64,000 nt of DNA from Chthoniobacter sp. (GCA_043779205.1 JAYWEP010000105.1:7231-71230), one strand, 5' to 3'. Positions 18,071 through 63,815 are shown, counted from the first letter of the stretch. Program-made: numbers and translations. Notes: a model not told the origin generated them from the sequence alone.

Positions 18071-18131
18071 AGGGCGGGGAAGGTTGCAAACGCCCCGCGG
18101 CAGCGCAAGCCCGCAGAGCATGTCTGCGATT

Positions 18132-18222
18132 TCTTCCTCTTCCTCTTCCGCTTAATCTTCCTCCCACCGACGAAGAGGAAGATTAGGAGGAAGCGGAAGA
18201 GGAAGACAAAAGCGGAAGAGGA
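18132..18222. repeat. Hexamer tandem-repeat palindrome (CTCTTC)n...(GAAGAG)n, copy 1
   Basis: TCTTCCTCTTCCTCTTCCGCTTAATCTTCCTC / GAGGAAGATTAGGAGGAAGCGGAAGAGGAAGA. The GAGGAAGATTA core is shared with 20414 and 46702. Confidence 0.9.
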
Positions 18223-18238
18223 CTTTTCAGCCCGCCCC

Positions 18239-18987: not shown

Positions 18988-20403
18988 TCAGCGCGGCGTG
19001 AGCTTGGGACCGTCCTTGGTGTCCTTCACGATCCAGCCGAGCGCGGCGATTTCGTCGCGGAGCCGGTCGCTCTCCGCCCACTGCTTTTCGGCGCGCGCGC
19101 GCTGACGCTGCTCCACGAGCGCGCCGACGGCGGCAGGGATGGCGGCGCTTTCCCGCTGAAAGGCGAGGACGGAATCGAGGTGCCGCCAGTCGGCGAGCAA
19201 GGCGGACGCTTGTTCCGCGGTGAGCGCACGGCGGTCGAGGGCGGCGTTGCTTTCGCGGATGAGGTCGAAGAGGTGGCTGAGCGCGGCGGAGATGTTCAGG
19301 TCTTCGTCGAGCGCGGCGAAAAACTTCTCCACATGCCCGGCGAGCGGTGCCGGCGCGGCGGCGGCATCCAAATCTGAAATCTGAAATCTGAAATCTGAAA
19401 TCCTCTTCACCCATTCGTCGATGCGGCCCAGCGCGGCGCGGGCGGCGTCGAGACCGGCGAGGGTGAAGTTCAGCGGCAGGCGATAGTTGACGGTGAGCAG
19501 GGCGTAGCGGATTTCGCGGCCGGTGAAGCCTTTCTCGAGCAGGTCGCGCAATGTATAAAAATTGCCGAGCGACTTGGACATCTTCTGCCCATCGACCATG
19601 AGGTGCGCGCAGTGCATCCAGGTGCGGACAAACTTTTTTCCCGTGCAGCTTTCGCTCTGCGCGATCTCGGCTTCGTGATGCGGAAAAATGTTGTCCACGC
19701 CGCCGCAGTGGATGTCGATTTCCGGGCCGAGGATCGCGGTCGCCATCGCGCTGCACTCGATATGCCAGCCGGGCCGACCCGGCCCCCACGGCGAATCCCA
19801 GCGCACCTCGCCATCGGCTTCGTCCCACGCTTTCCAGAGCGCGAAGTCGCCGATGTTTTCCTTCTCGTACTCGTCGCTGTTCACGCGTCCGCTCGGGCGC
19901 AGCTCGTCGAGATTGAGATGCGCGAGCGCGCCGTAGGCGGGGAATTTCGCGAGGCGGAAATAGACGCTTTTGTCTTCGGCCTGATAGGCGATGCCCTGCT
20001 CCTCCAATTGCGCGATCATGGCGATCATCCGCGCGATGAAACGCGGCTCGGTGGCGGCGGGGAAATGGCCCGCACGCTTGATTCGCAGCGTCTCGAGGTC
20101 CTGGAAAAAGGCGTCCTTATAGACCTGCGTGAAGTCGGCCAGCCGGCGGCCCGCCGCGCGCGCGCCGCGGATGGTTTTGTCGTCCACGTCCGTGAGATTC
20201 ATCACGCGCTCGACCTCGTAGCCGCGCGCTTCGAGGTGCCGCTGGAGCAGGTCTTCGAAAACGTAGGCGCGGAAATTTCCGATGTGCGCGTGGTTGTACA
20301 CCGTCGGCCCGCAGGTGTACATCTTCACGCGCTTCCCCGCCGGATCGAGCGGGGTGAAATCCTCGAGCTGGCGCGAGTAGGTATTGTGCAGGCGGACGGG
20401 CAT
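18988..20403 (-). CDS. cysS: Cysteinyl-tRNA synthetase
   Basis: MYTCGPTVYNHAHIGN, GRPGWHIECSAM, DIHCGGVDNIFPHHEAEIAQ and KMSKS. Confidence 0.99.
   Translation of the reverse strand: MPVRLHNTYSRQLEDFTPLDPAGKRVKMYTCGPTVYNHAHIGNFRAYVFEDLLQRHLEARGYEVERVMNLTDVDDKTIRGARAAGRRLADFTQVYKDAFFQDLETLRIKRAGHFPAATEPRFIARMIAMIAQLEEQGIAYQAEDKSVYFRLAKFPAYGALAHLNLDELRPSGRVNSDEYEKENIGDFALWKAWDEADGEVRWDSPWGPGRPGWHIECSAMATAILGPEIDIHCGGVDNIFPHHEAEIAQSESCTGKKFVRTWMHCAHLMVDGQKMSKSLGNFYTLRDLLEKGFTGREIRYALLTVNYRLPLNFTLAGLDAARAALGRIDEWVKRISDFRFQISDLDAAAAPAPLAGHVEKFFAALDEDLNISAALSHLFDLIRESNAALDRRALTAEQASALLADWRHLDSVLAFQRESAAIPAAVGALVEQRQRARAEKQWAESDRLRDEIAALGWIVKDTKDGPKLTPR
19370..19402. repeat. Heptamer tandem repeat (AAATCTG)x4.7 inside cysS
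   Basis: aaatctg-aaatctg-aaatctg-aaatctg-aaatc; encodes ISDFRFQISDL. Confidence 0.95.
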
Positions 20404-20413
20404 GGGATTTTGT

Positions 20414-20487
20414 CGTCCTCTTCCTCTTCCTCTTCCTCTTCCTCCTCCTGAATGGAGGAAGATTAGGCGGAAGAGGAAGAGGAAGAG
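20414..20487. repeat. Hexamer tandem-repeat palindrome, copy 2
   Basis: (CTCTTC)x4...GAGGAAGATTAGGCG(GAAGAG)x3 between the autotransporter stop and the cysS start. Confidence 0.9.
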
Positions 20488-20518
20488 CCGGAGGTTTTTT
20501 TAAGCTGATGCTCGAAAC

Positions 20519-25783: not shown

Positions 25784-26024
25784 GGTCGGATATTGGGGTG
25801 GAAAAAATCGGGATGCGCGCTTTTGAAAAGCCCTGCCCGCGGGCCGCAGACCCTCGCTTTTATCGCATGAGGCAAACGTCACCAAGCCCGGGATTGGGGT
25901 GTTGTCCGCAGTCTGATGGGGGACGCGATAGACGCTCGGTTTTCAAAGCCCGCGTATGTGCCGCCAGCCGTCGGGACTGTCAAAGAAAACTTTCCCGGCG
26001 CAGCCCTCCGTCCGCGGCTTCCCC

Positions 26025-26053
26025 GTCATTTGTTCATTCGTCATTCGTCATTT
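26025..26053. repeat. Heptamer tandem repeat (GTCATTC-type), single arm
   Basis: gtcattt-gttcattc-gtcattc-gtcattt just past the ppk2 stop; same unit as 49271-49373. Confidence 0.8.
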
Positions 26054-27038: not shown

Positions 27039-27129
27039 TTTTTTGACCACGGATTTCACGGATTTCACGGATTACAGAAAATCTGAATCCGTGTAATCCG
27101 TGAAATCCGTGAAATCCGTGGTTAAAAAA
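27039..27129. repeat. Nonamer tandem-repeat palindrome (CACGGATTT)n...(AAATCCGTG)n, copy 1
   Basis: About 37-bp near-perfect inverted arms: TTTTTTGACCACGGATTTCACGGATTTCACGGATTACA / TGTAATCCGTGAAATCCGTGAAATCCGTGGTTAAAAAA. Confidence 0.95.
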
Positions 27130-27169: not shown

Positions 27170-28708
27170 TCATTTTCCACTCTTCGCCCCGCGAAGGCTG
27201 ATGGAATCGAGATCGAGCGCCTTTTGCGAAATGATCTCCGCATCCTTGAACACCCCGCCCAGCGTCGCGCGAAAACTCTCCGCCTGCCCCGCGATGACCA
27301 CGCACGTCCCCGCACTCTGCAAATGCTCGCGCGCGAATTTCCGCACCGCATCCGGCGCGACCGCGCGCACCTCGCCGGGGTAGGTGTTCAGCGTGCCCAG
27401 CGGCACATCCAGCACGGCCCAGCCCGCCAGCCGCGTGGCAAAGCCGTCATTCGTCTCCAGCGAGCGCCCATACTCGCCCGTCAGCGTGCTCGTCCGCGGC
27501 GTCAGCTCCTCCGCCGGCACCGGCTCCGCGCCGAGCCGGTCCAGCTCCGCGCGCATCAGCACCGCCACCTCCGGCCCCGCGGAGTTTTTCGTCTGCGCCA
27601 CGGCGATGAACGCCCCGCCCAGCCGCCGCGCGCCGAGATCGCTCGATGCGCCATAAGTCAGCCCGCGTTTCACCCGAATCTCCGCATTCAGCCGCGCGCT
27701 GTATCCGCCGCCCAGCACCGCGCTCGCCACCACACCCGGAAAATAATCCGCCGCCTTCCGCGCCACCGCCGTCTTCCCCACGACCACCGCGGCCTGCCCC
27801 GCATTCGGCATGTCGATGATGACCACACGCGGCTTCGCCGGTGCCTCCGCCACGCGCACCGCTGGCAGCGATGCGGCGGGCTTTTTCCAATCCCCGAAAA
27901 ACTGCTCCGCCCACGCGAAGCCCTGCTCCGCCGTCACGCTCCCCGCGAAAACCAGCACCGCATTGTCGGGCCGGAAGCAGGTCGCATGCAGCTTCGCGAG
28001 CTGCGCGCGGCTGAGATGCGCCACGCTTTTCGGCGTCCCGCTCAGCATGTGCCCGTACGGCCCGTCGCCGAAAATCACCCGCGCCGCCGCCGCCTTCGCG
28101 AGCGTGCCCGGCTCCTCCATTTTCACCCGCAGCTCATCCAGCGTCTCCGCCCGCAGCCGCTCCACCTCCGCCGCCGCGAGCACCGGCCGCCGCACCACGT
28201 CGCCCAGAATCTCCAGCGCCGCCGGGGCCTGCCCCGCCATCACCGTCAGCTTCGCCGCCGTCTCATCCCACCCCGCGCCCGTCTCGATCGTCCCGCCCAG
28301 CGCCTCGATGGCCTGCGCGATCTGCGGCGCACTCCGCTTCCCCGCGCCCCGCATGAGCAGCGTCGCCAGCATCTCCATCGCCCCCGCCCCGCCCGCCGGA
28401 TCGACCTCCCCGCCGCTCTTGATCACCAGATGCGCCGACAGAATCGGCAACCCCGCCCGCTCGACGACAATGACCCGCAGCCCGTTCGCCAGCGTTTTCT
28501 CCACCGGCTCCGGCAGCTTGATTTCATGCGGCTCGCCGGGCGGCGGCGGCGTCTGCACGCCTTCTTCTTCCGCAAAAGCGAAAGCTCCCGACAACAGCAC
28601 CAGCACCCAAAAACCGAGCGCCGCGCCGCGGCGCAACTGTAGGGGAAGCTGCCAGCTTCCCCTACAGTTGCGATCGCGCGCTTCCAGCCGATGACGGTGT
28701 TTTTTCAT
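27170..28708 (-). CDS. M16 family peptidase, non-catalytic subunit
   Basis: TLANGLRVIVVE, VLGGGYSARLNAEIRVKRGLTYGA; no HxxEH. The ATG directly follows the TAG of the upstream M16 gene. Confidence 0.9.
   Translation of the reverse strand: MKKHRHRLEARDRNCRGSWQLPLQLRRGAALGFWVLVLLSGAFAFAEEEGVQTPPPPGEPHEIKLPEPVEKTLANGLRVIVVERAGLPILSAHLVIKSGGEVDPAGGAGAMEMLATLLMRGAGKRSAPQIAQAIEALGGTIETGAGWDETAAKLTVMAGQAPAALEILGDVVRRPVLAAAEVERLRAETLDELRVKMEEPGTLAKAAAARVIFGDGPYGHMLSGTPKSVAHLSRAQLAKLHATCFRPDNAVLVFAGSVTAEQGFAWAEQFFGDWKKPAASLPAVRVAEAPAKPRVVIIDMPNAGQAAVVVGKTAVARKAADYFPGVVASAVLGGGYSARLNAEIRVKRGLTYGASSDLGARRLGGAFIAVAQTKNSAGPEVAVLMRAELDRLGAEPVPAEELTPRTSTLTGEYGRSLETNDGFATRLAGWAVLDVPLGTLNTYPGEVRAVAPDAVRKFAREHLQSAGTCVVIAGQAESFRATLGGVFKDAEIISQKALDLDSISLRGAKSGK
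28632..28672. repeat. Perfect 19-bp inverted repeat inside the signal-peptide coding region
   Basis: CGCAACTGTAGGGGAAGCT-GCC-AGCTTCCCCTACAGTTGCG. Confidence 0.95.
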
Positions 28709-36680: not shown

Positions 36681-36933
36681 GGCTGGGGATGGGACGGGTT
36701 CATGGGTGCTGGCGGGAAAAGGCGGGAACAAGCCGGGGCGAAGGACAAAGCGGATGAAAAGACGCTCGCCGCCCGAAAGCGACAAAGGCGCGAGCGTCGC
36801 GAGGGGGCGGAGGGAAACCGGCTGGGACTCGATGTATGGGAGCACATGAGGACTAAACTAAACCACCAACTTTGCACGGGAGACGATTCACCGTATGACC
36901 GGCAATCTGTCAAATCTTTTTTTGCCCCTCGTG

Positions 36934-37090
36934 CCCCTCGTTCCCAAGCTCCTGCTTGGGAATGCCAGTGTCCTGGAAGCTCCGCTTCCCGGTGCGTGGC
37001 ATGGAGTGACGCGTGTGCGCTCTTGCGGCGCGGCCGAAGCAGAGCTTCGCAGACAAGGGCGTGCCCAAGCTGGAGCTTGGGCACGAGGGG
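36934..37090. repeat. About 155-bp composite REP/BIME-like element, copy 1
   Basis: CTCGTTCCCAAGCTCCTGCTTGGGAA..GAAGCTCCGCTTC..GAAGCAGAGCTTCG..CCCAAGCTGGAGCTTGGGCACGAG; homologous to 63639-63792. Confidence 0.9.
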
Positions 37091-37137
37091 CCATTGCCTG
37101 GGCACGAGGAGGGAAATACAACCCGCATCGCCGCGGA

Positions 37138-38950: not shown

Positions 38951-38973
38951 GTGATAGTAACGGGGACCGGTAC

Positions 38974-39132
38974 TTATTTCTTCTTAGCTGCTTTTTTAGC
39001 AGGAGCCGCCTTTTTAGCAGGAGCAGCTTTCTTGGCCGCAGGCTTCTTAGCCGCCAATTTCTTGGCTGGTGCTTTTTTGGCTGGTGCTGCTTTGGCCGCA
39101 GCTTTTTTTGCAGGAGCTTTCTTAATCGCCAT
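38974..39132 (-). CDS. 52-aa Lys/Ala/Pro-rich histone H1-like nucleoid protein
   Basis: Manual translation: MAIKKAPAKKAAAKAAPAKKAPAKKLAAKKPAAKKAAPAKKAAPAKKAAKKK*. GGGGGA just upstream and its own terminator downstream. Too short for the ORF track. Confidence 0.85.
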   Translation of the reverse strand: MAIKKAPAKKAAAKAAPAKKAPAKKLAAKKPAAKKAAPAKKAAPAKKAAKKK

Positions 39133-39448
39133 TTAAAATCCCCCCTTTCAATCCGCAGTAGCGGGTCACAGGAAAATGTTTGGAGTGGTCAGGTTTGTTC
39201 ATCACTCGGAATGCGTGTGTGGTTAGTGAAGATGAGGAAAAGGGTCAACGGATTTCTTCTTGCGCGGGCATTTATTTTTTCGTTGGCGCGAAATCCGACG
39301 AGGCTTCGCGATCACAGCCGCGGCGACTTGGAAATCATCATAGCCCGCGCAGCCTGTGTTGATGCGGCTTGCGGGGCGGTGCCGAAAATTTCGCAGGTCA
39401 GGTGACGCGGAATTTCCGGGCGCGCGGATCGTGCGCAAAAATTTCGCG

Positions 39449-44494: not shown

Positions 44495-46246
44495 GTGAGC
44501 TACACGGTTTTCGCCCGCAAATATCGTCCGCAGACCTTCGATGAAATCGTCGGGCAGGACCACATCGTCCGCACGCTGAAGAACGCCATCGCCCAGAACC
44601 GGCTGGCGCAGGCGTATCTTTTCGTCGGCCCGCGCGGGACGGGGAAGACGAGCACGGCGCGCATTTTCGCGAAAGCGCTGAACTGCGTGAACGGGCCGAC
44701 GGCGGACCCGTGCGGGGTGTGCTCGATGTGCAAGGAAATCGCCGAGGGGAATTCGCTGAACGTCATGGAATTCGACGCCGCGTCGAACACGCAGGTCGAT
44801 AAAATCCGCGAGATCATCATCGACAATGTGAAGTACATGCCGACCGGCGGGGCGAAGTACAAACTCTACATCGTGGACGAGGTCCACATGCTCTCGAACT
44901 CGTCCTTCAACGCGCTCCTCAAGACGCTCGAGGAGCCGCCCGCGCATGTGAAATTCGTCTTCGCCACGACCGACGTGCAGAAGGTGCCGACGACGATCAT
45001 CTCGCGCTGCCAGCGCTTCGACCTGCGGCGCATCCCCGCGCCGGAAATCGCGAAGCATTTGCTCTACATCGCGGGCAAGGAAAACCTCGCGCTCTCGCCC
45101 GCGGCGGCGGAGACCATCGCGCGCGGCGCGGAGGGCGGGCTGCGCGATGCGGAGTCGATGTTCGATCAGCTCGTGGCGTTTTGCGGGACGGAAATCGGCG
45201 AGGAAAACGTGCTCGAAGTCTTCGGCTTCACCGGGCAGCAGACGGTCGCGGGGCTGTGCGGGCACTTGATCGCGGGCGAATCCGCGGCGGCGCTGGCGGC
45301 GATCCACGCGCAGGCCGAGGCGGGGAAGGATCTCAGCCGGCTGATGTCCGATCTCATCGCGCACTTTCGCAATCTGCTCGTCGTGCGGCACGACCCGCAG
45401 GGCGTGCAGGATGAGCTGAGCGCGGAGGCCGTGGCGGCGCTCGTGGAGCAAAGCGGGCGCATCGGCACGGACAAACTGCTGGAGCTGATCGAGCAATTCG
45501 CCGCGGCGGAAGGCCGGATGAAATGGGCGGCGAACAAGAAGATGCACTTCGAGATCGCCGCGATCCGCGCGATCCAAACATTGGGTCAGGCGACATTGAC
45601 GGAGGTGCTGGACACGCTGACCGCGATCCGCGGCGGCGGCGGGGGAGAAGACGGAAGGCGGAAGGCGGAAGGCGGAAGTGTGCGGCCCGCGCCGGTCGTG
45701 AAACTGGAAACGCCGGCACCCGCGCCGCGCGCTTCGCTGAGCGCGGCGGTCGCCGCTTCCCTCGGGGAAAAAAAAACCGCGCCCGCGCCGGTCCCATCCG
45801 TCCCATCCGTGCGCGAGGAGCCGCCCGCAAAGCCTGTGCCCAAGCCAGTCGCAGCGGCACCGGCGATTTCCATGGAGGCGCTGTGGCCGCGGTTTGTGGA
45901 CCGCCTGCGGCAGGACAAAAACCGCGGGCTCCTCTGCACCTTTGTCGAGGCTGGCCAGCTCGTCGAAGTCGCCAACGGCCTCGCCATTCTCGCCTTTCCG
46001 CCGGACGCCGATTTCGAGCGGGACTCGTGCGCCGGAAAAAACCGCCCGCCGCTCGAAGCGCTGCTCACCGAACTCGCCGGGCAGCCGATCACGCTCAAGT
46101 GCGAAACCCGCGCCGGCCTCACCGTCAAAAAAATCGCGCCGGCCGAAACCAAAGCCGACGAGCCGCCACCCGACCCGATGGCCGTTTTCAAAGACGACCC
46201 GCTCATCCACAAGGCGCTCGAAATTTTCCAAGCCGAGATTCTTTGA
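44495..46246 (+). CDS. dnaX: DNA polymerase III subunit gamma/tau
   Basis: [43 protein letters not shown]. Confidence 0.98.
45652..45678. repeat. Heptamer tandem repeat (CGGAAGG)x3.9 inside the dnaX linker
   Basis: cggaagg-cggaagg-cggaagg-cggaag, encoding [10 protein letters not shown] 9-mer GTCCCATCC x2 also occurs at 45791-45808. Confidence 0.9.
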
Positions 46247-46250
46247 AGAA

Positions 46251-46353
46251 TGTTGAGAGTTGAAAGTTGAGTGTTGAGTGACGCTTGGCTCCAATTCCCA
46301 CACACCTCCAAAAACCACGCGCAGCGTTCCCTTTCACTCAACACTCAACTTTC
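46251..46353. repeat. Heptamer tandem-repeat palindrome (GTTGA(G/A)N type)
   Basis: GAAAGTTGAGTGTTGAGTGA (46262-46281) and its exact reverse complement (46334-46353), separated by 52 nt. Confidence 0.92.
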
Positions 46354-46362
46354 CCACTACCC

Positions 46363-46677
46363 ATGAACCTCAAAAAAATGATGCAGCAGGCCACCAAGAT
46401 GCAGGAGCAGATGCAGAGCGCGCAGGCCGATCTCGCCGAGAAATCCGTGACCGCCACCGCGGGCGGCGGCAAAGTCACCGTGACCGCGAACGGCGCGGGC
46501 GAAGTGACCGCGATCAAGATCGACAAAACGGTCGTCGATCCCGAAGACGTGGAGATGCTCGAAGACCTCGTCCTCACCGGCGTGCAAAAAGCCCTCGCCG
46601 AGGCCAAGGCGCTCGCGGAATCCGAGATGGGCAAAGTGACCGCCGGCCTCGGGCTGCCGCCGGGACTGGGGTTCTAG
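46363..46677 (+). CDS. ybaB: YbaB/EbfC nucleoid-associated protein
   Basis: MMQQATKMQEQM, TATAGGGKVTV, DPEDVEMLEDLV. Confidence 0.96.
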   Translation: MNLKKMMQQATKMQEQMQSAQADLAEKSVTATAGGGKVTVTANGAGEVTAIKIDKTVVDPEDVEMLEDLVLTGVQKALAEAKALAESEMGKVTAGLGLPPGLGF

Positions 46678-46701
46678 CGCATCCACCGAAAACAAGTTCC
46701 G

Positions 46702-46790
46702 TCTCTTCCTCTTCCGCTTCCGCTTCCTCTTCCTCTTAATCTTCCTCCTTCCGATTTGAGGAAGATTAAGAGGAAGAGGAAGAGGAAGAC
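46702..46790. repeat. Hexamer tandem-repeat palindrome, copy 3
   Basis: (CTCTTC/CGCTTC)n TTAATCTTCCTC...GAGGAAGATTAA(GAGGAA)n. Confidence 0.9.
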
Positions 46791-46868
46791 GATGAGTGGC
46801 CGCTCAAGTCAGCACAGGCATTGACCCCGCACCCTTCCTGCTCCACAAGGGGCGTGACTTTCTCCGGA

Positions 46869-49289
46869 ATGAAATACTGGACCGCTCCCATCCTCCGCTG
46901 CGCCGCCCGGGCGCTGCTGGCGGTCCTGCTGGCGGCGGGCGCACTCGGGCAGAATCCTCCGGCTCCCGCACCGGAACCGGCACCGCCGCTGACCATCGCC
47001 GAATTTCTCCAGACCGCCGCGCAGTGGGTGGAAACTCCGGCGCGGGTGCGCGGGACGATCACGGGTTTTTGGGGCGACGCCTTTTTCCTCGAAGGCCAGT
47101 CCGGCGCGATGTTCGTCGCCAATTACAACCGCAAGGACAGCCTCCGCATCGGCGACGCCGTGGAAGTCACGGGCACCGCGATCCTCGGCGGCATGAGCGC
47201 GGGCCTGCGCCTGCAGGAGGTGCGCGTCCTCGGCCCCGGCGCGCAGCCCACCGCCAGACGGCTGACCGCCGCCGCGGCTCTCGACGGAAAAAACGACGCG
47301 CACCTCGTCCGCGTGAGCGGGCGCGTGGCCAACGCCGAAAGCCCGTTCGGCGCGGACCGCTCCGTCCTCCTGCACGCCGACGGCATCGACTTCACCGCCG
47401 AATTCATCGGCGAACCCGACGGCCGCCAGTGGCCCGCGCTCCTGCCCGGCGAACTCGTCGAGGTCTCCGCCATCCTCTCCGTGCGCGGCCTGCACGACAG
47501 CAGCCCCGTCCCCTTTCGCCTCCTCCTCCGCTCCCACCGCGACCTCACCATCACCGGCCCGCAGCCGTGGTGGATGCCGCCGCGCCTTTACCGCATGCTC
47601 GCCATCGCCGCGCTCCTCCTCGGCGCCGCCGTGGTCTGGGGGCTCGCGCTCCGCCGGCAGGTCCGCGCGCAGGCGGAAAAAATCCGCACCCGCCTCGAGC
47701 GCGAGCGCGCCGTGGAAGAGCGTTACCGCGAGATTTTCGACAACGCCGCCGACCTCATCCTGACCCACGATCTCGCGGGCACCATCACCTCCTTCAATCC
47801 CGCCGGCGAGCGCCTCCTCGGCTGGCCCGCCGGGGAAATCACCGGCCGCAACATCGCCGACATCCTCGCCCGCGACGAACGCGACACCACCGGCGGCCTC
47901 ACCGCCCCCGCGCCCACGCTCCAGGCCGAAAACGGCGTCCTCTTTCAGCTCGATCTCCTCGCCCGTGACGGCCGCTGCATCCCCGTGGAAGTCAGCTCCT
48001 GGACCGCCTTTCAGGACGGCCAGCCCATTGGCCGCCAGGCCATCTGCCGCGACCTCACCGAGCGCCTTCGCGACCAGGCCGAGCGCACCCGGCTCGACCA
48101 CAAAATCCAGGAAAGCCAGAAGCTCGAAAGCCTCGGCGTCCTCGCCGGCGGCGTAGCCCACGATTTCAACAACCTCCTCACCACCATCCTCGGCAACGCC
48201 AGCCTCGCCCAGATGGACTCCCCGGCCAACGCCCCCGCGCAGCCCTGCCTCCAGCAGATCGAAATCGCCGCCGAGCGCGCCGCCGGCCTCTGCCAGCAGA
48301 TGCTCGCCTATTCGGGCCAGGGCCGCTTCGTGGTGAAACGCACCGATCTCTCCGCCCTCATCCGCGAAAGCGCCGGGCTGCTCCGCGCCTCGGTCAACCG
48401 CAAAGCCGTGCTCGATTTGCGCCTCGCCGAGCATCTGCCCGCGACCATCGCCGACGTGACGCAGATGCAGCAGATGCTCATGAGCCTCGTCGTCAACGCG
48501 GGCGAGGCCCTGGGCGAAAACCCCGGCACCATCACCATCGCCACCGGCACCATCCAGGCCACCCGCGCCGACTTCGCCGCCGCCCACCTCGCGCCCGACC
48601 TGCCCGAGGGCGAGTACGTCTTTCTCGAAATCGCCGACACCGGCACCGGCATCAGCCACGAGACCAGGGACAAAATCTTCGACCCGTTTTTCAGCACCAA
48701 ATTCACCGGCCGCGGCCTCGGCCTCGCCGCCGTGCTCGGCATCGTCCGCGGCCATCGCGGCGCGATCCGCGTGACCAGCGAACCCGGCGTCGGCAGCACC
48801 TTCCGCGTGCTCCTGCCCAGCACCGGCACGCCCTCACTCCAGGCCGAGTTTCCCTTCCCTGCCAGTTCCCGCACCGCCCGGCTCATCCTCCTCGTCGATG
48901 ACGAGGAATCCGTCCGCACCGCCATCCGCCGCATGCTCGAAAACCTCGGCTACGAAGTCCTCCTCGCCGCCGACGGCTTCGAGGCCGTCGAGCAAGTCCG
49001 CGAGGCCGGCCCGCGCCTCTCCGCCGTCCTCCTCGACCTGACCATGCCGCGCATGGACGGAGCCGAAGCCTTCCTCGCCATGCGCGCACTCCAGCCCGCC
49101 CTCCGCGTCCTGCTGATGAGCGGTTTCGCCGAGCAGCAGGCGCTCGCCCGCTTCGCCGGCCTGGGCCTCACCGGCTTCCTGCAAAAGCCGTTCAAGCCGG
49201 ACCGCCTTCGCGACCAGCTCACCGCCGCCCTGAGCATCGAAGTTCCCGGTGCGGGCCCGCATGGCGAAAAAATGACAAATGTCGGATGA
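46869..49289 (+). CDS. Hybrid sensor histidine kinase (periplasmic OB-fold-like region, PAS, HisKA, HATPase, REC)
   Basis: GVAHDFNNLL H-box, DTGTGI..FDPFFSTK..GRGLGL, and REC ILLVDDE..VLLDLTMPRMDG. Confidence 0.95.
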   Translation: MKYWTAPILRCAARALLAVLLAAGALGQNPPAPAPEPAPPLTIAEFLQTAAQWVETPARVRGTITGFWGDAFFLEGQSGAMFVANYNRKDSLRIGDAVEVTGTAILGGMSAGLRLQEVRVLGPGAQPTARRLTAAAALDGKNDAHLVRVSGRVANAESPFGADRSVLLHADGIDFTAEFIGEPDGRQWPALLPGELVEVSAILSVRGLHDSSPVPFRLLLRSHRDLTITGPQPWWMPPRLYRMLAIAALLLGAAVVWGLALRRQVRAQAEKIRTRLERERAVEERYREIFDNAADLILTHDLAGTITSFNPAGERLLGWPAGEITGRNIADILARDERDTTGGLTAPAPTLQAENGVLFQLDLLARDGRCIPVEVSSWTAFQDGQPIGRQAICRDLTERLRDQAERTRLDHKIQESQKLESLGVLAGGVAHDFNNLLTTILGNASLAQMDSPANAPAQPCLQQIEIAAERAAGLCQQMLAYSGQGRFVVKRTDLSALIRESAGLLRASVNRKAVLDLRLAEHLPATIADVTQMQQMLMSLVVNAGEALGENPGTITIATGTIQATRADFAAAHLAPDLPEGEYVFLEIADTGTGISHETRDKIFDPFFSTKFTGRGLGLAAVLGIVRGHRGAIRVTSEPGVGSTFRVLLPSTGTPSLQAEFPFPASSRTARLILLVDDEESVRTAIRRMLENLGYEVLLAADGFEAVEQVREAGPRLSAVLLDLTMPRMDGAEAFLAMRALQPALRVLLMSGFAEQQALARFAGLGLTGFLQKPFKPDRLRDQLTAALSIEVPGAGPHGEKMTNVG

Positions 49290-49373
49290 CGAATGACGAG
49301 AGAATGACAAAGCCCGAAATCCAAACGCCGCGCTGAATTCCGTCGTCATTCGTCATTCGTCATTCGTCATTCC
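49271..49373. repeat. Heptamer tandem-repeat palindrome (GAATGAC)n...(GTCATTC)n
   Basis: The left arm overlaps the kinase stop codon; the right arm is cgtcatt x4. Confidence 0.9.
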
Positions 49374-49384
49374 ACATTCCCCTC

Positions 49385-50725
49385 ATGCCCACCGCCGAAG
49401 TCGCCACGCTCCTCGAATTCCTCCGCTTCCCCAGCATCTCCACCGACCCCGAGCGCCGCGCCGATGTCGCCCGCTGCGCCGACTGGCTCGTCGCGCAGCT
49501 CACGCAGAGCGGCTTGAAAGCCACACTGCATCCCACCGCCGGGCACCCCATCGTCGTCGCGCGCAATGTCCACCAGCCGGGCCGCCGCACCGTCATGATC
49601 TACGGCCACTACGACGTGCAGCCCGTCGATCCGCTGGAGCTGTGGGACTCGCCGCCCTTCGAGCCGCGCATTGAAAACGAAGTCGTCTTCGCCCGCGGCG
49701 CGACCGACAACAAAGGCCAGATCCTCGCGCACATCCTCGGCATCGCCGCCACGCTGCGCGAAAAGGGCGACGTGCCCGTGAACCTCATCGTGCTCATCGA
49801 GGGCGAGGAGGAAATCGGCAGCGCGCATCTGGAGGAATTTCTCACCACCCATCGCGACGAACTGCGCTGCGACCTCATCGCCATTTCCGACACCGGCATG
49901 GTCGCGCGCGGCGTGCCCACTTTCACCTACGGCCTGCGCGGCATCGGCGCGCTCGAGATGAAAGTCACCGGCCCCGCCACCGACCTCCACTCCGGCATCT
50001 ACGGCGGCGCGGTCGCCAATCCCGCCACCGCCGTCGCGCGCCTCGTCGCCAGCCTGCACGATGCCGACGGGCGCGTGGCCGTGCCCGGTTTTTACGACGG
50101 CACCGCGCCGCTCGAAAAGTGGGAGCGCGACGCCTGGGCGCGGCTGCCCTTTGGCGATGCCGAGATCCTCGCCGTCACCGGCGCACCCGCGCTTTTTGGC
50201 GAAGCCGGCTACACCAGTCTGGAGCGGACCTGGGCGCGTCCGACCGCCGAGGTGAACGGCATCGGCGGCGGCTTCCAAGGCACCGGCACAAAAACCGTCC
50301 TGCCCCGCGAAGCCTTTGCCAAGCTGACTTTCCGGCTCGTCCCCGGCCAGCAGCCGGATGACGTGATGGCCAAAGTGAAAACGCATCTCCGCGAAAAATG
50401 CCCGCCCGGCGTGCGGCTTGAAATCACCGGCGGCCACGCTGGCGAGCCCTACGTCACCGACCCGAATTCCCCCGGCGGACTCGCCGCGCAGCGCGCCCTG
50501 CGCACGGCCTTTCCCGGCAAAGACGTGGCCCTCATCCGCGAAGGCGGCAGCATCCCCATCGTCAACACCTTCAAAAAAATCCTCGGCGTCGAAAGCCTCC
50601 TCCTCGGCCTCGCCCTGCCCGACTGCCGCGCCCACGCACCCAACGAAAACTTCCCGCTCGAAAACTTCCACGCCGGCATCCGCCTGAACCGCGCGCTGCT
50701 CGCAGAACTCGCGTCGGTCGGGTGA
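49385..50725 (+). CDS. M20/M25/M40 family dipeptidase (ArgE/DapE-like)
   Basis: YGHYDVQP, ARGATDNKG, EGEEEIGS, HAPNENF. Confidence 0.95.
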   Translation: MPTAEVATLLEFLRFPSISTDPERRADVARCADWLVAQLTQSGLKATLHPTAGHPIVVARNVHQPGRRTVMIYGHYDVQPVDPLELWDSPPFEPRIENEVVFARGATDNKGQILAHILGIAATLREKGDVPVNLIVLIEGEEEIGSAHLEEFLTTHRDELRCDLIAISDTGMVARGVPTFTYGLRGIGALEMKVTGPATDLHSGIYGGAVANPATAVARLVASLHDADGRVAVPGFYDGTAPLEKWERDAWARLPFGDAEILAVTGAPALFGEAGYTSLERTWARPTAEVNGIGGGFQGTGTKTVLPREAFAKLTFRLVPGQQPDDVMAKVKTHLREKCPPGVRLEITGGHAGEPYVTDPNSPGGLAAQRALRTAFPGKDVALIREGGSIPIVNTFKKILGVESLLLGLALPDCRAHAPNENFPLENFHAGIRLNRALLAELASVG

Positions 50726-60715: not shown

Positions 60716-60797
60716 TTTGAAACCACGGATTGCACGGATTACACGGATTTTGATTTCTGGAAATCCGTGTAATCCGCGAAATCCGTGGTCAAAAAAC
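60716..60797. repeat. Nonamer tandem-repeat palindrome, copy 2
   Basis: ACCACGGATTGCACGGATTACACGGATTT...AAATCCGTGTAATCCGCGAAATCCGTGGTCAAAAAACTG; same right end as 27039-27129. Confidence 0.95.
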
Positions 60798-63617: not shown

Positions 63618-63638
63618 AATTGCCGCGGCTTTTAGGCT
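63614..63638 (+). pseudogene. Stump of a HicA-family toxin gene, interrupted by a REP element
   Basis: ATGA overlap with the hicB stop. It begins MKLPR, as partner HicA toxins of this HicB type do, then runs into the REP at about 63639. Confidence 0.6.
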
Positions 63639-63792
63639 CCTCGTTCCCAAGCTCCAGCTTGGGGACGCCATTGTCTGCGAAGCTCTGCTTCGTCGGCGTT
63701 CGGTGTCCGGGGAGCGTCCCTTGTGGGCCACCATGTCGAAGCAGAGCTTCGGGGACAGGTGCGTTCCCAAGCAGGAGCTTGGGAACGAGGGG
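63639..63792. repeat. About 155-bp composite REP/BIME-like element, copy 2
   Basis: CCTCGTTCCCAAGCTCCAGCTTGGGGACG..GAAGCTCTGCTTCG..CGAAGCAGAGCTTC..GCGTTCCCAAGCAGGAGCTTGGGAACGAGG. Confidence 0.92.
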
Positions 63793-63815
63793 TCTTTCGC
63801 TACATCTCTAAAAGG

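Follow-up and report, generated by a model that had tools for sequence, protein, structure and literature searches.

The window analysed here is a 64,000-nt stretch (C105:7231–71230) of a Chthoniobacter sp. metagenome-assembled genome (MAG; designated G000, 4.82 Mb in 335 contigs, 64% GC, 90%-complete), whose cysS gene shows 79–87% similarity to Chthoniobacter MAGs and C. flavus. Its genes were mapped with a frame-margin caller and cross-checked with Pfam. Seven two-armed tandem-repeat palindromes, in which short tandem units face their own reverse complement across a loop, occupy short spacers in the window, every one between co-oriented genes. We describe these elements, their counterparts across the genome and the evidence that they probably belong, as gene-less members, to families of hairpin-armed insertion cassettes that carry a four-helix-bundle or a GxxExxY gene.

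The element between dnaX and ybaB (46251–46353) consists of a left array (TGTTGAG)x4.3 and a right array (CACTCAA)x2.1. Its arms (46262–46281 and 46334–46353) are 20 nt long, 100% complementary and separated by 52 nt, as the original prediction had stated for a GTTGA(G/A)N unit with 20-bp perfect arms, and the RNA fold has an energy of -37 kcal/mol. The GAATGAC element predicted at 49271 was also recovered and extends to 49378, with (AATGACG)x4.1 facing (TCGTCAT)x4.3 in arms of 35 nt that are 86% complementary and a fold of -46.8 kcal/mol. It covers the stop codon of the upstream histidine kinase gene (49287–49289) and ends 6 nt ahead of the ATG of the M20 peptidase gene (49385). At least seven two-armed elements, mostly between co-oriented genes and some over stop codons, had been expected, and this description holds. 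Each of the seven was folded against 200 shuffles, with z scores of -5.2 to -13.4 and 0/200 shuffles as stable; the arms of the element at 27039–27129 are 38 nt long and 97% complementary.

Tandem arrays were called over the whole genome with Tandem Repeats Finder (period 5–12, merged), and arrays no more than 150 bp apart were taken as neighbours. Neighbouring arrays form 291 inverted pairs vs 4 direct same-unit pairs, far more than chance would give and in line with the predicted enrichment of inverted pairing. Period 7 accounts for 126/291 pairs, and the remainder include periods 6, 8, 9 and 10. There are about 20 multi-copy unit families, for example CTCTTC (57 pairs), CACGGATTN (36), GAATGAC (32), AACGTCC (20) and AGCAGG (17). 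The order of the two arms within families is invariant (57/57, 32/32, 36/36 and 19/20); because such a palindrome is identical on both strands, arm order is a property independent of strand. Aligned copies of one family have non-repeat cores, termini and even loops in common, and same-loop subfamilies recur at many sites (9-mer copies with TTTTTAGGAATCAGAAATCC, 6-mer copies with CTCGTTCGCCCTCGATGGGAGG). The fixed arm order and the shared loops and cores indicate that the copies are related by copying rather than having originated independently in place, and the loops and cores shared among gene-less copies indicate that the gene-less form is copied as such. The gene-less form itself thus multiplies, in the manner of transposable elements of the miniature inverted-repeat type (MITEs) or of REPINs, the hairpins formed by repetitive extragenic palindromes (REPs), without a known transposase. 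The earlier suggestion that the flanks are left behind in place by a departing gene was mostly not borne out.

Gene-less copies comprise two arms and a short loop (8–130 nt) in about 80–140 bp, and they outnumber gene-bearing copies by about 30:1, making up ~97% of the elements. Copies of the GAATGAC family retain an inner region that is long and structured. Counted in nucleotides, the arms differ little in length (32, 31, 32, 26 and 27 nt as the period goes from 6 to 10), the number of units per arm falling from 5.3 to 2.7 across the same periods. The copies lie in short spacers, notably at operon junctions, with median distances of 13 nt from the preceding stop codon and 14 nt to the following start. 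On re-inspection of apparently lone arms, 93 have a degenerate partner and 109 are truly solo, 44 of these in coding DNA. Nesting in an outer palindrome was seen for 15% of the tandem-repeat palindromes, and this nesting of unrelated palindromes suggests a preference for hairpin loops as landing sites. An outer inverted pair, CTAAGAGGG(C/T)GTCTAAAAAG ... CTTTTTAGAC(G/A)CCCTCTTAG, surrounds unrelated inner palindromes (6-mer, AGCAGG and 9-mer hairpins and a GTAG-type REP), for example at G000:C147:21073, C262:4400, C269:7133 and C10:7189; a degenerate copy forms the right flank of the window element at 27039–27129.

The genome holds ten cargo genes: six of the PF05635/TIGR02436 family, which encode an Avd-like four-helix bundle, and four of the PF13366/TIGR04256 family, which encode a GxxExxY PD-(D/E)XK nuclease. 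All ten (10/10) lie between inverted tandem-repeat arms that are 365–480 bp apart, with ten different units and with the arm polarity of the gene-less copies. A blind search of the whole genome for same-family arms that had no partner nearby but lay in the correct order 150–6000 bp apart returned five pairs from five families, 365–416 bp apart, and 0 pairs in the control order. The five pairs enclose open reading frames (ORFs) of 117–137 aa, four encoding a TIGR02436 four-helix bundle and one a TIGR04256 GxxExxY protein. A small mobile gene of either type enclosed by its repeat flanks had been among the proposed sources of the elements, and these results support that proposal. None of the outcomes that were to count against the original prediction was observed. 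A full cassette measures ~450–550 bp and consists of a left arm of 26–32 nt of short tandem units, one small gene that adjoins the arms directly without boundary repeats of its own, and a reverse-complement arm; the arms of the four-helix-bundle cassettes have 6–7-nt units, and the 8–11-nt-unit arms of the GxxExxY cassettes often have T-run/A-run termini. The conserved motifs of the cargo proteins are GxxExxY and D...ExK in the nuclease and Q..R...S...N..E in the four-helix bundle, and no transposase domain was found in either.

The window elements can be tied to particular cassettes. A gene-bearing 6-mer copy with a PF05635 gene is located at G000:C316:1773–2234, and its left arm and that of the window element at 18132–18222 agree over 39 nt at 100% identity. 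A gene-bearing 9-mer copy with a PF13366 gene is located at G000:C146:70170–70658. Unit families that include a gene-bearing copy have one such copy per family and account for 63% of the gene-less copies. GTTGAGR arms were found around PF05635 genes in four relatives (L091, L093, L095 and L099). A locus in a related genome (L149, G003:C135:10100–10950, at ~300–590) was considered as a GAATGAC gene cassette and rejected: its palindrome has ~14-unit arms and a gene-free 340-nt loop that contains a nested CACCACCGGCTAAT-type palindromic repeat (a REP), and the same type of repeat flanks the Y1 transposase gene G000:C33:24526–24972.

The association of arms and genes extends to relatives. In a survey of 61 genomes of the taxonomic family, own genome included, the two cargo families were found in 40/61 and 45/61 genomes. 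Flanking inverted repeats were scored against 200 small control genes with the 95th percentile of the controls as the cut-off, and 38/46 locatable cargo genes sampled from related genomes exceeded it (83% vs 5%), with a median score of 20.5 vs 8 for the control small genes and with tandem-repetitive arms; in a second sample, 19/20 genes had a score of at least 12. The unit period depends on the cargo: 27/27 GxxExxY genes have units of at least 8 nt, and 16/19 four-helix-bundle genes have units of at most 7 nt (Fisher test, ~1e-9). In Mantel tests, protein identity correlates with arm similarity (r = 0.40 with p = 0.001; r = 0.34 with p = 0.0025). The proposal of one mechanism independent of unit sequence is contradicted by this dependence. 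The 6-mer core surrounds a PF05635 gene in another genus (G016:C362), and 9-mer arms surround a PF13366 gene in yet another (G020:C1). Gene and arms thus appear, from these comparisons, to evolve and to move between genomes as one unit. By the period rule, the window's 6- and 7-mer elements would belong with the four-helix-bundle cassettes and its 9-mer elements with the GxxExxY cassettes, an assignment that for GAATGAC is drawn from the unit period alone.

Near-relative alleles of the window sites were identified on contigs in DNA metagenomes (X5, X7, X8 and X9 among them). The proposed comparison of filled with empty alleles gave element-free sites in near relatives at 6/6 resolvable window sites (that at 20413, where repeats cross-matched, not being among the resolvable), with joints that are listed in Table 1. 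At the cysS junctions of 80 relatives' loci there are unrelated unit families, a plain terminator or nothing; of the spacers orthologous to 20413–20494, that of L009 contains a 6-mer element, that of L001 an 8-mer ACGCAGAG element, and those of L003, L005 and L014 a plain terminator hairpin. The 6-mer core has 133 matches in this genome and is present in 11/61 genomes (own included), the 9-mer family has 107 matches here and is present in 17/61, and the GAATGAC family occurs in 26/61, some with hundreds of matches. The families are thus patchy across genera and, judged from these alignments, appear to have burst to ~300–380 copies here since the split from the near relatives.

Table 1. Tandem-repeat elements of the window, with fold z scores and the corresponding joints in near relatives
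Feature	Coordinates	Strand	Genomic context	z	Joint	Window (nt)	Relatives (nt)
Gene-less palindrome, 6-mer CTCTTC family	18132–18222		Between two co-oriented minus-strand genes	-5.8	18109→18236	126	0 in close strain, flank ~99% identical (3 differences in 210 nt)
Solo heptamer array (GATTTCA)x4.7	19370–19402	-	In frame within cysS
Gene-less palindrome, 6-mer CTCTTC family	20413–20494		9 nt upstream of minus-strand cysS start codon	-5.2
Lone right-type arm (CGTCATT)x4, GAATGAC family	26024–26052		Just downstream of ppk2 stop codon
Gene-less palindrome, 9-mer (CACGGATTN)n, termini TTTTTGACC...GGTCAAAAA, putative GxxExxY type	27039–27129		Upstream of ppk2	-13.4	26950→27191	240	66 in near relative
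Solo heptamer array (GAAGGCG)x4.6	45647–45678	+	dnaX coding region, linker
Gene-less palindrome, 7-nt unit GTTGAGN (family AACTCTC, 8 paired copies in genome)	46251–46353		dnaX stop (46246) / ybaB start (46363)	-5.4	46243→46359	115	20–23 (X5/X7/X9; similar in two)
Gene-less palindrome, 6-mer (CTCTTC)n with TTAATC core (57 paired copies)	46703–46796		ybaB / histidine kinase gene	-7.2	46677→46820	142	33 in near relative
Gene-less palindrome, 7-nt unit GAATGAC (family AATGACG, 32 paired copies)	49271–49378		Histidine kinase / M20 peptidase	-7.9	49253→49384	130	36 in near relative
Gene-less palindrome, 9-mer CACGGATTN family, putative GxxExxY type	60722–60789			-10.4	60682→60823	140	5 in X5/X7, 15 in X8, 16 in X9

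Besides the seven palindromes, Table 1 lists three single arrays of the window. The lone GAATGAC arm predicted at 26025 is present, has no partner within 60 nt and belongs to the 109 solo arms of the genome. The solo array in cysS specifies the residues RISDFRFQISD of the linker that connects the catalytic domain with the DALR domain, at a position where relatives show 12–15-nt gaps, and its GATTTCA unit family has nine paired intergenic palindromes elsewhere in the genome; the AAGGCGG unit family of the dnaX array has 14 paired intergenic palindromes genome-wide. In the 6-mer copies (e.g. 20413–20494), the fixed arm order always places the purine-rich GGAAGAGG arm on the 3′ side, and this arm often lies 9–15 nt before the downstream start codon, as at cysS; it could be a Shine–Dalgarno-like sequence. 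Depth spikes of 50–100 fold over the arms at 46702–46818, 49276–49392, 19310–19403 and 20344–20437 were observed in unrelated freshwater-sediment metagenomes; the unit families behind them are very abundant in those communities. Two further repeats of the window differ in kind. Two copies (36933–37091 and 63634–63795) of a ~160-bp imperfect palindromic dispersed repeat (GCCCCTCGTTCCCAAGCTCCWGCTTGGG...) contain no tandem units and belong to a separate repeat family. On the minus strand at ~38960–39135, a small protein rich in lysine and alanine (MAIKKAPAKKAAAKAAPAKK...), uncalled by the gene caller, is encoded by 15/18-nt tandem repeats and resembles histone-H1-like AKKA-repeat nucleoid proteins.

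We favour the reading, with a probability of roughly 0.7, that the tandem-repeat palindromes are gene-less members of hairpin-armed insertion cassette families with a four-helix-bundle or GxxExxY gene. The cognate protein would recognise its own arms by their tandem units, probably in the form of a DNA hairpin or cruciform, and would promote copying or insertion in trans, much as one REP-associated tyrosine transposase (RAYT) gene serves each REPIN population. The elements would be transcribed by read-through from host operons; all ten cassettes lie between co-oriented genes and 9/10 share the direction of those genes, an orientation consistent with read-through. The ~30-bp RNA stem may be cut by RNase III, by analogy with the intervening sequences (IVSs) of 23S rRNA, and such cutting would allow insertions in operons and rRNA to be tolerated.

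Several observations weigh against this reading. Families without a gene-bearing copy here make up 37% of copies and include GAATGAC (32) and GTTGAGN (8); a gene-bearing GAATGAC cassette was found neither in this assembly nor among 39 sampled relatives' genes, and the 20 PF05635 genes added from GAATGAC-rich genomes have other units. The covariation of arms and protein could stem from linkage alone, without recognition. Arms paired with their own partners marginally better than with swapped ones in 3/8 families, a test that is nearly uninformative because the copies are too alike. At the sole exact empty/filled pair (18110–18235), a 3-nt CCC ambiguity is present and the indel includes 20 + 28 nt absent from other copies; with this microhomology and site-specific extra sequence, deletion in the relative is as likely as insertion, and the ends of the indel are not element boundaries, since other copies share the arms only. 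No clear target-site duplication was found at this one precisely delimited indel. The source metagenomes (X1–X4) show no polymorphism or unit slippage, and their contigs break inside the arms. Neither cargo protein is a known transposase, and the mode of movement, read-through and RNase III processing are predictions here.

Absence of a known transposase would also suit an alternative in which an unrelated enzyme of the host (Y1/RAYT or another hairpin-processing activity) moves the hairpins, with the small genes as passengers or addiction-type cargo. In its favour, the genome holds ~7 Y1/RAYT-type (Y1_Tnp) genes along with several families of classical REPs, the same architecture is common to two unrelated cargo families, and 37% of copies are in families with no gene-bearing member here. 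Inspection of the seven Y1 genes, however, showed that each has its own different classical REP and that none has a tandem-repeat palindrome within 2.5 kb, and RAYT/Y1 mobilisation was rejected. One of these genes (G000:C96:6194–6658, RAYT-like) has the GTAG-type REP CTGTAGGGGAAGCTG.CAGCTTCCCCTACAG on both sides, and the same REP is present in the window at 28632–28672 in the form CGCAACTGTAGGGGAAGCTG C CAGCTTCCCCTACAGTTGCG; gene and repeat are an ordinary REP/RAYT system that coexists with the tandem-repeat palindromes. Unit period and arm sequence, moreover, track the cargo protein, and each unit family has a single gene-bearing copy, like RAYT–REPIN pairs. Movement by an unrelated enzyme is therefore unlikely.

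The palindromes could instead be primary and the small genes secondary invaders that home into hairpin loops, as parasites rather than parents. The covariation of genes and arms with identical partnerships in different genera, the specificity of the period for the protein family and the abutment of genes and arms without boundary repeats make this improbable, despite the large excess of gene-less copies, the nesting of 15% of elements in outer palindromes, the occupation of the same position by two unrelated gene families and the acceptance of other insertions by the loops (the REP in the GAATGAC loop of G003:C135).

Long palindromes are prone to central deletion, and each gene-less palindrome might thus be the relic of a full cassette that lost its gene at that site. 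The variable loop length and the long inner region of the GAATGAC family would fit such an origin. Identical loops at many sites would not be expected from independent deletions, and the loops contain no recognisable gene remnants, so that we consider relics of this kind to be quite improbable.

Intrinsic (rho-independent) terminators were considered as a role and rejected on three grounds: on the transcribed strand, the 3′ arm is followed by a T-run in 15/169 cases (9%), arm GC is 50% vs 64% for the genome, and the palindromes are not enriched at gene 3′ ends, their split over tandem, divergent and convergent spacers (169/46/33) matching availability (2583/572/543). In the 8- and 9-mer families the order of T-run...A-run is the opposite of terminator symmetry. 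That the elements are host-selected RNA elements (terminators, mRNA stabilisers or processing sites) which arose in place by slippage and pairing selection is highly improbable: very stable hairpins, a position in transcribed spacers near stop codons and a constant arm length of ~30 nt would suit them, and against them stand, besides the context and anatomy just given, the fixed arm order and shared loops and cores that point to copying and the 6/6 sites that are empty in near relatives, with short plain spacers or ordinary terminators instead. As for the earlier proposal of mRNA-stabilising or processing hairpins, selection for stabilisers or terminators finds no support in this evidence, and RNA processing of the stem stays plausible.

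The favoured reading of the palindromes as gene-less cassette members has consequences beyond this genome. PF05635/TIGR02436 and PF13366/TIGR04256 are very large families of unknown function, for which the tandem units flanking their own genes are a candidate substrate. The origin of the 23S rRNA IVSs is a 35-year-old puzzle, and these would represent one site at which a general family of cassettes lands. Over-represented bacterial heptamer repeats, which have been read as G-quadruplexes, regulator sites or phase-variation tracts, gain a candidate common origin. The elements break short-read assemblies, and they fill operon junctions beside essential genes (cysS, dnaX and ybaB), where they may reshape operon RNA processing. 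With ~300–380 copies, ~20 families and ten candidate master genes, this genome is a rich natural experiment on the rules. We also raise, tentatively and at rather less than even odds, the broader possibility that hairpin cassettes with either cargo are a widespread, unrecognised class of prokaryotic mobile element without a conventional transposase, in which a small protein reads its own arm units in DNA or RNA that is folded and acts in trans to spread gene-less hairpins. If so, one mechanism would cover the 23S rRNA IVSs, the heptamer and other short-repeat arrays (cyanobacterial short tandemly repeated repetitive (STRR) sequences, Xanthomonas GGGAATC arrays and Geobacter paired sites) and the stray PF05635 genes in cas and other operons.

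The arms resemble several published arrays. Xanthomonas GGGAATC heptamer arrays, 70–75 of which occur in inverted pairs, have been interpreted as G-quadruplex motifs (PMC4692102), and the ‘tandem heptanucleotide’ of Geobacter metallireducens forms five-unit arrays as paired sites, also within genes, interpreted as regulator sites (PMC2700814). Together with the cyanobacterial STRRs, these share with the present class intergenic and sometimes intragenic tandem 7-nt arrays; the class described here is broader, with periods 6, 8, 9 and 10 besides 7, and the likeness is one of architecture. The published heptamer arrays were not tied to a gene cassette, unlike those here with their inverted pairing, cargo-gene link and mobility, and a literature search found no paper that links such paired arrays to PF05635 or PF13366 genes.

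PF05635 proteins are Avd-like, and Avd is a nucleic-acid-binding pentameric four-helix bundle (PMC10053308). Genes of this family have been seen scattered within cas operons (PMC3936711) and in rRNA insertions of the candidate phyla radiation (CPR; PMC11270868). The cassettes differ from the diversity-generating retroelements (DGRs) of Avd in having no reverse transcriptase and no template repeat/variable repeat (TR/VR) pair, and the GxxExxY cassettes have no DGR connection. With REP/REPIN–RAYT systems they share high-copy intergenic palindrome families, one cognate gene that the family's own repeats flank, lineage-specific bursts and hairpin DNA as the presumed substrate. The arms here are tandem 6–10-nt units rather than a 20–40-nt imperfect palindrome headed by GTAG/CGTC, the gene that they enclose does not encode an HUH/Y1 transposase and the true REP/RAYT pairs of this genome use other repeats. 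With MITEs they share short non-coding inverted-repeat derivatives, more numerous than the coding parent whose ends they have, as in the 39-nt exact match between 18132 and C316, and presence/absence differences between relatives; they differ in that there is no DDE transposase parent, the cargo being PF05635 or PF13366, and in that the whole element is one hairpin, not unique DNA between terminal inverted repeats. Eukaryotic Foldback (FB) transposons also have inverted arms of short tandem subrepeats, and most of their copies are non-coding. They are far larger and are moved by a P/Galileo-type transposase, so that the resemblance is architectural only, without homology.

The closest likeness is to the IVSs of rRNA. 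ORF-bearing IVSs are found in Coxiella burnetii, Leptospira and Brucella, their S23p protein is PF05635, and gene-less short IVSs also occur in rRNA. Six cassettes of this genome, none of them inside the window, have a PF05635 gene between arms of the same length in a terminal-inverted-repeat stem. The Coxiella IVS is a ~430-nt hairpin element with a 28-bp terminal-inverted-repeat stem of strain-variable GACAGAT heptamers, to which the median of 26–32 nt for the arms here compares; it has an ORF for the S23p four-helix bundle (a pentameric toroid) in its loop, is cut by RNase III at the first repeat and is viewed as a selfish element of unknown mobility (PMC4990558). The elements of this genome differ in lying in protein-gene spacers genome-wide instead of in a 23S rRNA helix (H9, H25 or H45; the MAG has no 23S gene), in being mostly gene-less and multiplying as such, and in including a second, unrelated cargo, the GxxExxY nuclease, in the same design with longer units. 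They are best filed as an undescribed, genome-wide and mostly gene-less variant of the IVS-type hairpin cassette.

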